Shown piece after piece: positions 114-61,860 of a stretch of 64,000 nucleotides of DNA. This DNA comes from Ginglymostoma cirratum (lineage: Eukaryota). The notes beneath the pieces are model-generated. The model did not search any database. It was not told the origin of the DNA and saw only the letters and a program-made list of their open reading frames with translations. The stretch is taken from assembly GCA_024137785.1 (NCBI GenBank), contig JAHRHZ010000009.1, positions 12,885,421-12,949,420 of the forward strand. The letters run 5' to 3'. The stretch's first letter is position 1; each line of letters starts with the position of its first letter. The position numbers were made by a program, and so were the translations under genes.

Positions 114-296
114 ACTGAAGAGATGACCTGGTCATTATCACATGGCTGTTTGGGACAGCATTCTGTGTGTAAATTGGCCGCTGAGTTTCTTCCATTACAT
201 CAGTGACAATATTTTCCATGCGCTTTAGTCGCTAAGATTTTAGGGGCATCCTGTTGAGGGTGGAATATGCTAACTGAATACACATACTTTCTTTGC
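112..296 (+). mobile_element. 3' part of a Deu-domain-type SINE (SacSINE1-like)
   Basis: CTGGTCATTATCACAT..GCTGTTTG..TGTGTGTAAATTGGC..CATTACA.CAGTGAC, homologous to copies at 11.5, 45.6 and 49.8 kb. Family name is from memory. Confidence 0.6.
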
Positions 297-459
297 TTCG
301 GATTCCCTGTAACGCTGCTTCTGACTGCAGAATATCTCTGCTGAGATATTGTCTTTATTCCCGGTGTCTTTATTCTACAAAAAAAGGTGCGAATTAGTAC
401 AACCACCTAAAACCAGTGCGGCTGCTGAGGCGAAGATTCCACGGTCAAACTGAGTGGCA

Positions 460-584
460 AACACCTGAAGAAGGAGCGAGGCTCCGAAAGCTTGTGTTTT
501 CAAATAAACCTGTCGGACGATAACCTGGAGTCGTGTGATTTCTGACCTTGTCGACCCCAATCCAACACCGGCACCTCCACAACA
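460..584 (+). mobile_element. Short Penelope-like element, family B, with an intact minimal hammerhead motif (459-499) and a 13-bp TSD
   Basis: Reads AAACAC-CTGAAGA-A-GGAGC(GAG)GCTCC-GAA-AGCT-T-GTGTTT. Flanked by AAACTGAGTGGCA (447-459) and AAACTGAGAGGCA (585-597). Confidence 0.8.
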
Positions 585-2383
585 AAACTGAGAGGCATTC
601 AGTACTCGACAGTGTTCACTCCAATCGAGGGTCTTAATTAAAACTTAAACTAAATCACAGCAGCTGAGATTTCCATGAGAAGAAACAGATGATTTTAAAC
701 AAAGGAGAAACCGTGCTACAATACTGATACTATTCAAAGCATTAGGAGAGGGCAAGTGTAAGGTGTATTGGAGGGTGAGCGGGTCTGTGTTTAAAATCTT
801 TCACTGTAACAGTGACACGTTGGAAAGAATAGATCAGCGAAGCGGTGTCAATCACAGCTGTGGTGCTGTTAAATGGTACTGTGTACTCCAAAGTGCACAG
901 CTGGAATAGAGGCAGTGTTCCTGGAGAACATATAGTGGATGTGGGACTTTAGGAGGAGATGTCGTCACGAAGTGCTGGATTAAGAGGCCGGGACAATATG
1001 AAACATGTCAGCGTGCACTCGTATGATAAGGCTCTCACGAGGAATTTATTGGCCCAATGCTATTTCTATTTCTTTCTAATCTCGTTCGCCACATTCGTTC
1101 CGTGCAATCTGTCTCCATAATCTCCTGTGTCAGAATCACAGCCAATAGCACACAGTAATTGCGAGAGAACAGAAATATGCAAACACCCGATAAAGTGCTG
1201 CTCGTTACTCGTATTGAGGAGAATGTTGGATACTCGCTGCCTTTAAATAAGAAAACAACCGGTGGAGACACATTTGAGCAGGGAATGCATTGGCGGGGGG
1301 GGGGGGGGGGGGAGAGATAAAGAGCATTCCGTGTAGAATAGAGGATGGTTGCTTTGCTTCGTCCCGCCGATTCCCCATCCCCCTGATGTACCTCCCTAAT
1401 CCAGGGCCCTGCTACGGGGCACCTTCTGTTTCTGGGCAGATGTGAAGAAACGACCGTTGTCTATAGACACCGTATAACATCTGATAACCGAAATAACTTG
1501 GCGAAGGAAATTCGCCCTTAGAGCAAGGATATTCTGAAAGAGATCAAACTGTTACAAAAGAATATTACATTCAACACGTAACCGACTCCAGGAAGCACAT
1601 GGGAAAGCAGAGAGAGTGAGTTCACAGCAGGAGTTAGCGGGTATCGGTTCTGGGATTCTTTCGCGAATTGTCCCAAAAAATATGCTCCAATTTTGTGGAC
1701 GACACTTTGAGAACATCAGTTCTGACCTGTTTAAAACTTTCAGAAAACATTTCCCGTCCCCCTCAGTTTCAATCTAGCGAGACATAGCAGCACAGAATCC
1801 ACTTTCAAATCATTCGCCCCTACAATATTGCGAAGCACGTTGCGGGGGTCGGGGTTGGAAGAGGATGGGGGTGGGGGTGGGGGTGGGTGTGGGGGTTGGA
1901 TGTCCCGTTCATTTCCTTTATGAACTCGCTAATAGAGCGGAGATGGCCTTCCGTTTCACAGAGGCTTCTAGGTATATACAAAAATACGCCAAGCAAAGGG
2001 ACTGAAATCAAACAGCCTGCGGGAAACAAGGACTTTCATGTGTTGCGAGGGAGTGAAACGACTACCTGTTATTCTACGTGATTAGTACTGCTTAACACTC
2101 TTCTAATATTGCTTGAGATGCTGCCTACTTTCTCAGCACGCTAGTCTAATGACTTCGAGAAAACGCCGAGCCAGCTCATGCAAGGTTGACTCTCTCTGTT
2201 TAATGTGGGATTAGGAGCAGTCAGTAGCCCAACATTAGCAAAAATTATTGGGGGCTTCACCAAATAAAGACACGCAACCAGGAGCAGCCTAACTCACGCG
2301 TACTGTGGGGACTGCAACGTCGTGTATGAGCGGAGCCTGTGTCTAGCGACCACCCTGTGCGCTAGCCTCCTTGCCCAGAGGTA

Positions 2384-2506: not shown

Positions 2507-3184
2507 TTCCGCGGTCATCTCCGATCCATGTCGATGAGCTGACTAGTTTTAGGTTGAAAGGACAGTTTGAGTTTCTCCCAGAAACAGTCCCTGCTTGCAG
2601 TAGTCGCAGCATAACCCCAGCAATGACACTCCCCTCCAACCCCATTCCCTCCCCAGCGACCCACTGGAGAAAGGGTGAGAGGGCACCGGGGAATTCTTTC
2701 ACAGCCCTAGGGATTGACATACTACCCCATTAAATCCGACTTTTAAAATCGCGATAAGAGCACCAGAAATAGGAACAAGACTTAATAACCGGGCCCCGGA
2801 GCCTGCTCCACCATTCGCTATGATCCTGCCTGTATTTCTGTAGAACTTACACTTTCTCTCCCTGTTCCCATCTTCATCGATTCGTTTAGTGTCCAAAAAT
2901 ATGGATATTAATCTTGCATATACTCATTATTGAACACCCACAGACCTCTGGGTTAGATTATCCCAAACATTCACAATGTTCTGAGTGAAAAAATTCACTT
3001 CAACTTTGTCTTAAATAACAGATCCTACCCTGGTACTGTGACCACTCATCCTAAACTCACCAATCCTGTCCAGCATTTATACCACCGAGTCCTCCCAGGA
3101 ATTTTACACCTTAATGAGATCCCCTTCATCTAGATCATCTTGACCAGGACAACACTTTCATTCCAGACTTCAATCCTGGTGAAT

Positions 3185-3286
3185 CAGTTCCAAAGAAGGG
3201 TCACTGGACCTGAAATCTTAACTCTGTTTTCTCTCTACTGTTGCCAGACCTGCTGAGTTTTACCAGCACTTTCTGTTTTTGTTTTA
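3185..3286 (+). mobile_element. Degenerate short Penelope-like element, family C (hammerhead core mutated)
   Basis: CAGTTCCAAAGAAGGGTCACTGGACCTGAAATCTTAACTCTG...TGCCAGACCTGCTGAG, homologous to 60075-60214. Confidence 0.7.
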
Positions 3287-16102: not shown

Positions 16103-16383
16103 TACACAGTCGTTTCACGATTATCAGTCATTCGAAAAACCCGAAGTTTAAAGATCTGAATGGTGAACGACCGGACACATTTGGTGCAGATTCGCGAGCG
16201 TTAGCTACAAGTGTCGCTGTGTTTGTTGTAAAATTGCTAATTAATCGAAAAGTGACACAGTCAACTGCATGCGAGATGCTCAGGCCTTCGTCACTGAAAG
16301 AGAGATGAGTGGTAGAGAGGCGAAACCGAGCAACAACCGGCCAGAACTTGGAGTTAACACAATCCTTCTTATACCAAACTCGC

Positions 16384-16457
16384 AACGTTAACACTGTTTG
16401 TCACCCCACAGATGCTGCCAGACCTGCTGAGTTTCTGTAGCACTTTCCGAATTTATT
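16384..16457 (+). mobile_element. 5'-truncated short Penelope-like element, family C
   Basis: AACGTTAAC..CACAGATGCTGCCAGACCTGCTGAGTTTCT, a near-exact match to 60126-60150. Confidence 0.75.
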
Positions 16458-19700: not shown

Positions 19701-20146
19701 CTCGGTGCAGAGTTGATCGGTTTAGACTCGGTGCAAAGTTGCTCGGTGTAAATTCGGTGCAAAGTTGCACAAGTTTAGAGTCGGTGCAGAGTTGCACAGG
19801 TTTATATTCGATGCGGAGTTGCTCAGGTTTAGAATCGGTGAGGAGTTGCTCAGGTTTAGAATCGGTGCAGACTTGCTCAGGTTTAGATTCGATGCAGACT
19901 TGCTCAGGTTTAGAATCGGTGCAGACTTGCTTAGGTTTAGATTCGATGCAGACTTGCTCAGGTTTAGAATCGGTGCAGACTTGCTCGGGTGTAGATTCGA
20001 TGCAGACTTGCTCAGGTTTAGAATCGGTGCAGACTTTTGCTTAGGTTTAGATTCGATGCAGACTTGCTCAGGTTTAGAATCGGTGCAGACTTGCTCGGGT
20101 GTAGATTCGGTGCAGAGTCGCTCGGTGCAGATTCGCTCAGGTTTGA
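19701..20146. repeat. 27-bp minisatellite (about 16 units) with a 54-bp higher-order alternation, between the promoter cluster and the SOX1 ATG
   Basis: Units GCAGACTTGCTCAGGTTTAGAATCGGT and GCAGACTTGCTCAGGTTTAGATTCGAT alternate in the core. The edges are degenerate and there is a 2-bp insertion near 20035-38. Confidence 0.95.
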
Positions 20147-26861: not shown

Positions 26862-26994
26862 GAGATAAAAGGTACTGCAGATGCTGGAGAATCCGAGATA
26901 ACAAGCATGGGGCTGGATGACCGAAACGTCAAGTTTTCCTGCTCCTATGATGCTGCTTGACCTGCTGTGTTCATCCAGCCCCATGCTTGTTATC
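26862..26994. mobile_element. Internally deleted palindromic Penelope-like element, family A, with a 14-bp TSD
   Basis: Perfect 25-bp inverted repeat at 26896-26920 and 26971-26995. Direct repeat TAGGCAAATAATCA at 26848-26861 and 26995-27008. Confidence 0.85.
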
Positions 26995-44756: not shown

Positions 44757-44847
44757 GAAAAGCTCAGCAAAGCTCAGCAGGTCTGGCAGCATCTGTGAAG
44801 AAAAAAATCAGAATTAATGTTTCAGGTCTGGCAATCCTTCCTCAGAA
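44757..44847 (-). mobile_element. Short Penelope-like element, family C, with a degenerate stem II
   Basis: AAAGCTCAGCAGGTCTGGCAGCATCTGTGAA is identical to 59995-60025. It ends CTTCCTCAGAA, which is TTCTGAGGAAG on the minus strand. Confidence 0.8.
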
Positions 44848-45334
44848 GGTGGTTTAGCATTTCCAGAGCCTTCCTGGGACAGCACAGTACACACAATGTC
44901 TGAGGTAATTGCAGCTTGGCTGGACTATTTACATGGTGTGAAGGAACAGTGTGATCTTCAGTTTCATTTTCCTTTGGAAACACTTGTCAAGCAATCCATG
45001 TCTGGAACACTAAAATCGACTGCCTGAGGTTCCATGGAGTTCTGGAGAAGGACCTGTCACAAATCTTACATTTAAGTTATCCACCTCACACACTAAAAGT
45101 TAAACATATTTGATATCTTCTGATCAATGGTGCCATCACTAGCTCTAAGTGTGGCTGGTCAGAGCTTCCCCTTAATTCTACAACTTTTTCAGTACACTTT
45201 CTGATGGAAAAGAGGCCCTGTGCCCTTGGTCTTTTAAATCCAGGTGATCTGGGCTATGCAGATGCAGTGTACCTTTGATGTGCATGGGAAAGTGAAAGAG
45301 GAAAAGCTACCACACCCAGAAGGTATCTGTTCTG

Positions 45335-52204: not shown

Positions 52205-52490
52205 GATTCATAACCCCCATTAGCAGCTTTTCTTTACCCCCATCTCACCATTATCTATTCCTTCATGTGCACAACTGCTGTTCTGTCTGTCTGAGCTCCG
52301 TCTTCACCTGTCATTTACTCCTCCCACTCTAGCCCAGTCTTCAGCATATATACCAATCTTTTCCTACTTACAATCAGTTCTGAGGAAGGGTCACTGGACC
52401 CGAAATATTGACTCTGCTTTCCATCCACAGATACTGCCAGATACAACCAAACGTGCTGATGTTCTCATGTAATTTCTGTTTTAGTTTCAG
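52205..52490 (+). mobile_element. Longer Penelope-like terminal fragment, family C, with a hammerhead motif at 52376-52413
   Basis: A C/T-rich leader, then AGTT-CTGAGGA-A-GGGTC(ACTG)GACCC-GAA-ATAT-T-GACT and CACAGATACTGCCAGA. Confidence 0.7.
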
Positions 52491-56558: not shown

Positions 56559-56899
56559 AGTTTGAATCTCATATGTAAACACCTCACTGAGGAAAGGTTA
56601 GTAACAGGCCCTCAAGAAGGAGAAAATTTACTTTGGACAGGAATAAGGTTGTCAGATCTGTGCTACTTAGTCTTTTTCAGACAGAAGAGTGAACTAGTGT
56701 GTTGGTTAGTTCAACAAAGAAGATAAGAGAATGGGAAGAAGGTTGGTGACAGTGCAGACAAGATACTGCCATCACTGTTGCAGAAATCAGCTTAATCTGT
56801 TGATTCATCCTCTGTGAAAAATAAGCCACCCTCCCTTGTTGTATGCTTTACCTACCTATTTATTGTGTACATCATGGTTGAATAGTTGAAAAAAACTAG

Positions 56900-56998
56900 A
56901 AGTGTCACTGGACCCAGAACACTTACTCTGCATTCACTTCACAAATACTGCCAAATCTCTGGAGTTTCTCCAACAATTTCTGTTCTTGTTTCAGATTT
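56900..56998 (+). mobile_element. Degenerate short Penelope-like element, family C
   Basis: GTCACTGGACCC..ACTCTG..CACAAATACTGCCA..GAGTTTCTCCAACAATTTCTGTT. Confidence 0.6.
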
Positions 56999-58175: not shown

Positions 58176-58634
58176 ATGTGAAAATAAGAGATATGGGTAG
58201 TAAATTTGCAGGTGACATCAAAATAGGTTGTGCAGTGGATCGTAAAGAAGGTTATCTCAGCGTACAATGGTATCTTGATAGCATAGGCCAATGGGTCAAG
58301 GATTGCCAGATGGAGTTTAATTTAGATGAATGTGAGGTGCTGCATTTTGGAAAGGCAAATCAAGGCAGAACTTATACACTTGATGGTAGAGTCCTGGGGG
58401 GTGTTGCTGAACGATGAGTCTGAGGGGTGCAGGTGCATAGTTCATTGAAAGTGGAGTCAACACAGTGTGGAGCTGGAGGAACACAGCAGGCCAGGCAGCA
58501 CCAGAGGAACAGGAAAGTCAACGTTTCCAGTTGGGACCCTTCACCAGAGCTGATGATGCCTGGTCGGTGTGGACAAGTTAGACTGAAGGGTCTGTTTCCA
58601 TGCTTTATGACCCCATGACTCTATGATTCTATGT
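58176..58634 (+). mobile_element. Internally deleted CR1 fragment containing a family-A Penelope-like element (58459-58550, minus)
   Basis: ORF 58178-58417 reads SKFAGDIKIG..QMEFNLDECEVLHFG. The insert read on the minus strand is CTGGTGAAGGGTCCC..GAAACGTTGACTTTCCTG..GCCTGCTGTGTTCCTCCAGCTCCACAC. Confidence 0.75.
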
Positions 58635-59514: not shown

Positions 59515-61860
59515 TTCTGCCTCTGCGGTCCAGACTAATCTGACGTTCCACTTCTGGTCTGCAGCCTTGCAACTTATGACGCTTCAAGTGTATATCAAAA
59601 AGCTTATTAAATGTACTGGATGTTTCTGCCTCTTCCATCCTTTTAGACAGAGAGTTCTAGATTCACTCGAACCTCTCGGTGAAATAATTTCACTCGAGCT
59701 CCCCTCTATTCCTTTTAATTATTTAAAACTCTGATCCCTGTGGCTGGCTTCACCCATAAGGGAAATAACTTTTTCCTATCTACTCTGTCCAGATCTTCCA
59801 CAACTTAACACATTTCAATTAAATCTCTCCTCATCTTCCTCTGTTCCAATGAAAACAGCCCCAGAGTAGCCAATCTTCCTTCATAGCTAAAATTCTCCAA
59901 TTGAGGCAACATCCTCAAAAATGTCCTCTCTACACTTTCTGGTGTGATCACAGCCTTCCTAAAATAAGATGAACAGACAGTACACAGTTGCTGGAAAGCT
60001 CAGCAGGTCTGGCAGCATCTGTGAAAGGAAAAAACAGAGTTAACGTTTCGGGTCCAGTGACTCTTCCTCAGAACGTTCTGAGGAAGGGTCACCGGACCCG
60101 AAATGTTAACTCTGTGTTTTTCTTTCACAGATGCTGCCAGACCTGCTGAGCTTTTCCAGCAACTTTGTTTTTGTTCCTGATTTACAGCATCTGCAGTTCT
60201 TTCAGTTTTTATTTAGACAGTACACTGTTCTCTAGCTAAGGTTAAAATGGTATTTGCCTAATAAAATAAAGTCGAGCCATATACACTTTGAATCACCTTA
60301 TCTACCTGTCCTGTTATCTTCGGTAATCTGTAGACATATAGTCCAAGACCCGCTGCTCGTCTGCAATTCTCATTATCCTACCAAATTTTGTTTTCTCTTG
60401 CCTCATTTTCTCTCCCCACATGCATTAATTTACACTTTTCCAAAGTGAATTCCATATACCACTTTTCTGCCCATCTGATTATCCATTGATATCTTCATGA
60501 GATCCACGGCCTTATTCCTCATTATGAACAATATGGTCAATTTTTGTATCGTTTGCAAACTCCTTGATTGTAGCCCACAACATTTCAGTCTAAATCTTTG
60601 ATCCATTTAGATTATATACCACTCTCATGGCCCCTCAAAACAGTCAGTCAAATTAGTCAGATGTGATCATCCCGTAACCAATTCACATTGACGGTTCTCA
60701 AATAATGTATTGCTTTGTAAATAATAATGAATATAGTCCATCAGAGCTCAGTCCAAGAATTTGCCCACCACTGAGGTACAGCTGACTGATTTAAAATATC
60801 CATTCTTTCTCTTTGTCCCTTTTACAAACAATGGAATGTTGTCAGCTATTCTCCACATTTGTAGCCAGAAAAAAAAAGTTCTTCATTATTTTCTCCCCTG
60901 CATCTCTCAACAGCTTCAGATACATTTCATCTGGATCTACAATTCTATTTGCTAATTTATCTACTTTCAAAGATGCTGAACACCTTAATTTTTTTCTCTG
61001 TCACTATCTTTACATACCTTCAACATTTCACACTGTTCCTTCACTACTTTGTGAAAAAAGATTCAAAGTATTCATTAAGAACCATTCTCACATCCATTCC
61101 TCCACACATATCATCTTTATAGTCTCTAATAGGTCCCACTTTTTCCTCAGTTATTCTTTAGCTCTATATGCATTTAGAAAACACTGTTGATTTTTCTTTG
61201 GTTTTACTTGTCAATATATTTTGAGTCTCCTTACTTTTCTAACCTTTTTTTATTTAACCCTTGGGTTTTCTGGACTTCTCTAGGCTTTTGTAGCATTGAA
61301 TGCTTGGTATCTGACATAAGCTTTCCTTTTTTTCCTCATCCTACATTGGAGCAAAGGCCATTCAGCCAGCTCTATCATTCTATGATATCATGGATGATCA
61401 GCTACCTCTATGCCAGATTCCTGCACTATTTCTACATCCTTTGATGCTATTAATATTGAGAAATCTAATGATTTTCAGTTTTGGACATGCTCAATGATTG
61501 AGCTCCCAAAGCCTGCAGGTACACAGAATCCCAAGGATTCAGACTCCTCTGATTGAAGAAATCCTCTTCATCTCAGTCTTAAACAGCCTGTCATTTATTC
61601 TGAGACTATGTCCCCTGGTTATAAATTCACCGGCTGCAGAAAACATCCTACCTATATCCATTGTCATGCCCTCTATGGATTATGTATTTTCAATGGGAAC
61701 ACCTTTTGTTCTCCAAGAATTTACAAGCCCAGATTCCTTAATTTCTCTTGATAAAACAATCCTGCCATCCCAGGGATCAGCCTGGTGACCCAAATTGCAT
61801 GCCCTCCGTGGCAAATATATCTTTGTCTACATAAGGAGACAAAAGCTACATACAATGCCT
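59515..61860 (-). mobile_element. Decayed minus-strand CR1 fragments (at least two copies)
   Basis: Similar to the plus-strand appearance of 38.5-39.7 kb, for example TGTATCGTTTGCAAAC (FADDT-like on the minus strand) and GAAGAAATCCTCTTCATCTCAG. Confidence 0.7.
59986..60214. mobile_element. Young palindromic Penelope-like insertion, family C: two head-to-head hammerhead-bearing arms plus a 50-bp tail, with an 11-bp TSD
   Basis: Arms 59986-60074 and 60075-60164 are near-perfect reverse complements with no spacer. AGACAGTACAC occurs at 59975-85 and 60215-25. Confidence 0.9.

Follow-up and report, generated by a model that had tools for sequence, protein, structure and literature searches.

The window, i.e. 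the whole stretch of 64,000 nucleotides analyzed here, carries at positions 460-584 the pLTR end of a Penelope-like element (PLE), which consists of a hammerhead ribozyme motif, an AATAAA hexamer, a tail and the leader down to a start codon. The features of the locus are as follows:

447..459, + strand: left target-site duplication, 13 bp, AAACTGAGTGGCA; its last A extends stem I by chance
460..584, + strand: short copy of the terminal 125 bp of a Neptune element (pLTR / 5' leader), subfamily A
460..464, + strand: hammerhead stem I, 5' strand, AACAC
465..472, + strand: core CUGAAGA and an unpaired A before stem II, this A being typical of minimal PLE hammerheads as described in PMC4209133
473..485, + strand: stem II, GGAGC/GCUCC with the 3-nt loop GAG, assigned from sequence and fold
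486..493, + strand: GAA (486-488), the palindromic AGCU replacing helix III (489-492) and U17 (493)
after 493, + strand: predicted scissile bond, following a CUU triplet read from the sequence
494..498, + strand: stem I, 3' strand, GUGUU
503..508, + strand: AATAAA, present in most copies, with a putative role in polyadenylation
546..584, + strand: PLE 'tail', the part absent from 33 of 39 inverted partner pieces
585..597, + strand: right target-site duplication, AAACTGAGAGGCA, identical to the left one at 12 of 13 positions

An earlier note on this DNA had described a retrotransposed unit with flanking target-site duplications and a minimal dimer-type hammerhead motif, and our analysis confirms this: all the sequence parts that it named are present at their positions, and the 13-bp direct repeat (447-459 / 585-597, one mismatch) bounds both ends of the element exactly. 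The stem I that it proposed, AAACAC paired with GTGTTT, is right in its letters and one pair too long, since A459 belongs to the target duplication. The copy had also been called the best preserved, which it is not: its motif is intact, but of its 125 positions 7 depart from the subfamily majority, and this number is also the median among 38 other in-register copies, so that its age is average. What had been overlooked is the longer autonomous Neptune element of which the unit forms the end. Taken singly, the window copy is ordinary and belongs to a previously known kind of element.

The unit is the end of a Neptune element

Copies were searched for over the 4.36-Gb genome, which gave 3,820 first-look candidates, 40 of them scored. 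The terminal 29-mer has 635 exact matches in the genome, and its reversed control has 0. Many of 29 other loci share sequence with one another further upstream, and all have the same 3' end. Two copies (L007 and L022) extend beyond this 3' end into an ORF, the ATG of which includes the last base; judged by the colinear long copies, the 3' end of the window copy is thus the A of the ORF start codon. The same family is also present in relatives B and C, as seen in contigs of public runs.

Long copies carry decayed reverse transcriptase (RT) and endonuclease frames, with a match to RVT_1 (E 0.0016) that lies under the cut-off. The proteins closest to these frames are shark ORFs (best P0001, E 4e-64), in which RVT_1 is above the cut-off, and the decayed frames of L124 and L125 share 47-69% identity with them. 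The linker has the form CX4CxxC, reading CHSNLCKAC in L125 and CHSNLCKTC in P0001, which falls within the pattern CX2-5CxxC. An endonuclease core VYLIRC..C..WYIG with two cysteines was recognized by eye in L125 and in the shark ORFs; Pfam left GIY-YIG unmatched in both the long-copy frames and the shark ORFs, and a PDB search with the endonuclease frame returned nothing useful. The arrangement pLTR-ORF-pLTR is seen in L127, and the pLTRs of the family carry the hammerhead, the tail and the tandem or inverted arrangement of a PLE. According to PMC8557442, a CX2-5CxxC linker between RT and endonuclease occurs in Neptune and Nematis and is missing in Penelope/Poseidon, so that by the definitions outlined there the sequence would place the element in Neptune or Nematis. 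Neptune would be preferred because only Neptune and Poseidon are reported for vertebrates in the account given by a preprint (10.64898/2026.07.22.740005).

Three shark predicted proteins, P0003, P0004 and P0007 (NOXP20-like, cytochrome P450 2C31-like and septin 5a), also contain Neptune endonuclease-like sequence, reflecting either a gene-model artefact or exonisation.

The hammerhead motif and related motifs in the window

The motif has the parts of a minimal type I hammerhead, namely the CUGANGA and GAAA core, an NUH triplet, helices I and II, and a palindrome at 15.1-16.1. Segment 455-505 folds into stems I and II with a z of -1.89 (7 of 200 shuffles equally good), and in the full 125-nt unit the two-stem fold is not favoured (z -0.04 vs shuffles). 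Stem I of the family is 5 bp long in subfamily A (460-464 with 494-498) and 4 bp long in subfamily B; the position of the proposed sixth pair is T:T in 61 of 79 subfamily-A copies. Pair 4 of stem I is A-U in 72/79 copies of A and U-A in 49/65 copies of B, a compensatory swap that is one evolutionary event. The fully intact motif was found in 6 of the 24 copies with the core in register (3'-selected set, n=90). Rfam gave no match in the 64-kb window at the gathering score, as may be expected for a motif devoid of helix III. In the self-dimer computed with ViennaRNA, AGCU pairs between the strands and stem II is swapped. Published minimal PLE hammerheads are described as cleaving weakly, either as dimers (PMC4209133) or with the element's own protein (PMC11167929).

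A further PLE-type hammerhead family, D, in which ACGU is combined with a GUC triplet, is represented at positions 1-113 of the window; its motif has 3,664 exact matches in the genome, and its stem I, read from motif copies, has only ~2 bp. A perfect palindrome at 1-26 is the centre of a head-to-head pair and lies 7 nt before the family D core; stretches resembling family D are also found near 26921-26994 and 58459-58548. A head-to-head pair of another family, C (4,715 exact motif matches), occupies 59982-60168 and is centred 3 nt before each core, and stretches resembling it lie at 3182-3283, 16378-16446, 44769-44850, 52377-52441 and 56899-56956. The window also contains a GC-rich tandem repeat with a period of ~54 bp at 19702-20135.

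Target duplications, 3' ends and inverted arms

Flanking repeats of at least 10 matched bases were found in 14 of 66 short copies versus 0.26% of 780 mismatched flank pairs, and repeats of at least 7 matched bases in 22 of 66 versus 2.3% in the controls; the duplications vary in length, as they do in PLEs. The 13-bp repeat of the window copy exceeds chance: a direct repeat as good as this one arose at 528 of 200,000 position pairs drawn at random from the window, whose tandem repeats have probably raised this number. Both flanks of the window copy are single-copy in the genome (1/1 candidate each), and the copy is a single unit with unique flanks, outside any tandem array. Four public runs, of which one is from the same organism and three are from two relatives, were screened for the empty site, and none of their contigs joins the two flanks directly; the left junction of the insertion is present in one contig, which comes from another sample.

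Target duplications are mostly found in copies with an inverted arm (19/39) and seldom in plain short copies (3/27), and the window copy belongs to the rarer plain kind among the copies that have one. In the left flank, the contig from the other sample of the same organism departs from window 200-487 by one deletion and 7 substitutions; these differences, mostly T>C and A>G, represent an allele or an assembly error.

An inverted arm accompanies 39 of the 66 short copies. Most of these arms (33/39) begin 29-47 nt from the 3' end and therefore lack the PLE tail, and 38/39 also stop by 130 nt. In the contigs, the 3' ends form two clusters, near 541-550 and at 581.

Short copies share a 5' cliff

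To locate the 5' ends, we surveyed 90 of the first 100 listed matches to the 29-mer, a selection blind to 5' length, and mapped them against 12 long copies, with positions counted from the 3' end. Internal deletions were present in three copies, which were classed as long, and the 301-325 bin was ignored as an artefact of the alignment limit. The 90 ends were distributed as 18 at 29-94 nt, 15 at 95-112, 33 at 113-134, 0 at 135-156 and 24 beyond, short copies thus outnumbering long ones (66/90). The ribozyme core is reached by 57 copies. Of these, 33 have their end in the 22 nt around the 5' edge of the core, and none of the remaining 24 ends in the next 22 nt upstream. Smooth truncation predicts 6-8 ends at 113-134 nt, against the 33 observed (P 7e-14 under a constant hazard). 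A second cluster, 15 of 72, is found at 95-105 nt, at the foot of stem II, which suggests that structure influences where the RT stops.

Several origins of this cliff were considered and rejected. A hidden subfamily does not account for it, since, in the 15 non-inverted copies ending at the cliff, the DNA further upstream matches no other copy; what lies upstream is either unique or an inverted arm. Self-cleavage cannot set the 5' edge, since the cut would fall at 493/494, at a distance of 91 nt, and a single one of the 90 ends lies within 3 nt of this bond (88-94 nt). A splice acceptor at the ribozyme edge, for which the CACTAAC of subfamily A was a candidate, was also discarded: subfamily B does not have it, and no upstream exon common to the short copies was found within 200 nt. 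The 5' boundary looks like a rule of the family and resembles the end of a template.

Promoter-like motifs stand at the cliff

The region upstream of the hammerhead was compared with the consensus and customary spacing of TATA box and initiator in samples drawn by exact motif, comprising all 68 copies of A, 70 of 74 of B, the first 30 of 4,715 of C and the first 30 of 3,664 of D. Copies with a broken or shifted core or with N were dropped (8, 4, 3 and 9, respectively). In the long copies of A and B, TATAAA stands 30-31 nt before the A of CACT, and this A in turn precedes stem I by 3 nt. At -29 to -31, a TATA-like box is present in 18/33 (A), 4/6 (B), 6/8 (C) and 6/7 (D) long copies versus 0/27, 2/60, 0/19 and 0/14 short ones, the C and D samples being small (19 and 14 short copies) and part of the subfamily-A pool having been picked by likeness to the window copy. 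It is followed by an initiator-like context, TCACTA in A, CCACTT in B, TCAGTT in C and CCATTT in D, whose A sits 4-8 nt ahead of the ribozyme core in all four (sub)families.

The short copies stop at or just inside this A. Their match to the letters of the long copies climbs from 16 to 34 of 60 at +1 in subfamily B, from 9 through 13 to 18 of 19 over +1 to +2 in family C and from 4 to 10 of 14 at +2 in family D; in subfamily A there is also a step, from 17 to 23 of 32, at +4, where stem I begins. The exact ACT before stem I is retained in 8/32 short copies of A and 18/58 of B, where ~0.6 and 1.0 would be expected by chance. Family D shows the same 5' cliff despite its stem I of ~2 bp, and family C cannot discriminate between a start site and a fold edge, since its initiator A and stem I edge coincide.

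An extra G at the 5' junction, as a cap could leave behind, was seen in 6 of 17 non-inverted copies, which is not significant (P 0.13), the inverted copies being unreadable for it. Junction palindromes with a central C or G just before +1 occur in L171, L176, L185, L189, L074 and L173; this central base may be cap-templated or may be the -1 base.

There are precedents for a transcription start inside the pLTR (PMC6765202, PMC2377424), and a rotifer pLTR is described as having a TATA box plus TCACT (PMC3846280). This promoter-leader layout is not universal, since the Penelope of D. virilis is described as having a TATA-less promoter (PMC2377424) and an intron before the ribozyme (PMC4209133).

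Origin of the short copies

The copies have been shown to belong to a Neptune family, to have a 3' end fixed at the ATG, to carry target duplications and to stop at a 5' cliff, and the long ones to have TATA- and initiator-like motifs. We regard 460-584 as probably a short Neptune copy that was reverse-transcribed from a 5' leader that had stayed uncut, beginning at the start codon and ending where transcription starts. Since promoter and ORF are absent, this promoterless copy is dead. According to this model, a TATA box in the upstream pLTR would direct a Pol II start at the A of CACT, at a distance of 3 nt from stem I, and given such a start the hammerhead would be the first thing in the mRNA. 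The RT-GIY-YIG protein of the element would nick the target DNA, and the RT would prime inside the RNA, either near the start codon or ~35-40 nt upstream of it (the 'tail'). When the leader-side copy of the priming site is used, the template would run out after ~128 nt. Joining would often cost a few bases, 3 in the window copy, whose start we infer to be +4 of the transcript. The 3' end of the cDNA could then fold back, which would account for the many head-to-head pairs that have the start site at their centre, and the hammerhead would remain uncut in the leader templates and play no role as a boundary. An internal RT start has been shown in vitro for the Poseidon element PAc (PMC11167929).

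The earlier note had proposed that the ribozyme structure itself delimits the copied unit. A 5' end at the ribozyme edge is indeed a trait of the whole family, as the pile-up shows (33/57 vs 0/24), and the fold could set it if the RT let go, or a 5' exonuclease halted, at a folded or protein-bound hammerhead on an uncut longer RNA. In subfamily A, to which the window copy belongs, the stem I edge fits about as well as the start site: the match rate rises there and the window copy begins exactly at this point. In family C the edge is also the initiator A, and the second cluster of ends lies at the foot of stem II. However, the ACT upstream of stem I is retained far above chance, the cliff persists in family D with hardly any stem I, and the fold leaves the TATA-like box of four (sub)families unexplained and accommodates the empty bin just upstream (0/24) less naturally. 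We hold a fold-set edge to be unlikely, and a transcription start to be the more likely explanation of the cliff.

It is still more doubtful that the 125-130-bp unit is a non-autonomous master of its own, SINE-like or retrozyme-like, copied in trans by the Neptune protein. The excess of short over long copies (66/90) would fit such a master, and non-autonomous pLTR derivatives have been described (10.64898/2026.07.22.740005; PMC8557442), but the short copies have no TATA box, their 5' ends are ragged over ~20 nt, 39 of 66 carry an inverted arm, short and long copies share the A and B types, and the window copy does not stand in a tandem array. Very improbable, finally, is that ordinary random truncation reached stem I by accident, or that self-cleavage released the unit. 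PLE copies are generally 5'-truncated (PMC8557442) and 18/90 copies here end below 95 nt, but chance predicts 6-8 ends where 33 were seen, and release by cleavage would put the ends at 494, where 1/90 lies. Both are disfavoured for the family; for the single window copy, either could still hold.

Returning to copying from the leader, we lean slightly towards a broader proposal, namely that the solitary minimal hammerheads present in very large numbers in shark-like genomes are run-off cDNAs of PLE 5' leaders. They would mark each transcription start to near single-base precision, their template would be uncut sense RNA, head-to-head pairs would arise by fold-back at the cap end with no antisense RNA, and the hammerhead would act mainly on the leader instead of delimiting the unit. 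The copies would then predict, for each family, a start site (TATA at ~-30, initiator 4-8 nt before the core) together with an uncut sense template. If this is true, a hammerhead located at +1 to +4 of the mRNA would either cut off the cap end or serve as a protein-bound fold. Head-to-head inversions have been argued to need an antisense template, a point left open in the discussion of PMC3846280, and cDNA fold-back would offer a sense-template answer to this puzzle. The proposal touches on the replication mode of PLEs, on which RNA is copied and on the role of the hammerhead, and for these questions the family pattern outweighs the single copy. In the literature covered, which did not extend to subscription papers and supplements (the latter may list shark hammerheads), we found no work linking the ends of short copies to a promoter.

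Comparison with known systems

The family resembles the Neptune clade, as characterized in PMC8557442 and PMC3846280, by its RT with a C-terminal GIY-YIG core, two internal cysteines and a CX2-5CxxC linker, by a pLTR that ends at the ORF start and a 30-40-bp tail, and by head-to-head inverted arms and variable-length target duplications. It differs from the elements of these accounts in that most copies are leader-only with a sharp 5' cliff; the window copy, unlike Neptune clade elements, has no ORF, promoter or inverted arm.

As in the minimal type I PLE hammerheads described in PMC4209133, helix I is short, an unpaired base precedes helix II, G10.1-C11.1 is present, a 4-nt palindrome replaces helix III and many copies are solitary. 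The variant found here combines AGCU with a CUU triplet, while families C and D of the window combine ACGU with GUU or GUC. It may already be listed in Lunse 2017 (cited after the review PMC6765202) or in supplements, the former work reportedly dealing with the minimal type I hammerheads of metazoan PLEs.

For the Poseidon element PAc of Anolis, PMC11167929 describes RT starts that are internal, templates that are mainly uncut RNA and a cut site at which reads do not end. The window family is similar in having two classes of 3' ends that define the tail, an apparently uncut template and no pile-up of ends at the cut. In PAc, by contrast, the ORF begins at stem II and the RT starts 111-118 nt into the ORF (PMC11167929).

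The window copy is also short, non-coding, hammerhead-bearing and related to a pLTR, as are the non-LTR retrozymes presented in 10.64898/2026.07.22.740005 and PMC7229834. Retrozymes are defined by tandem units; the window copy, in contrast, does not consist of tandem units each with a hammerhead and is a dispersed monomer colinear with the end of an autonomous element.
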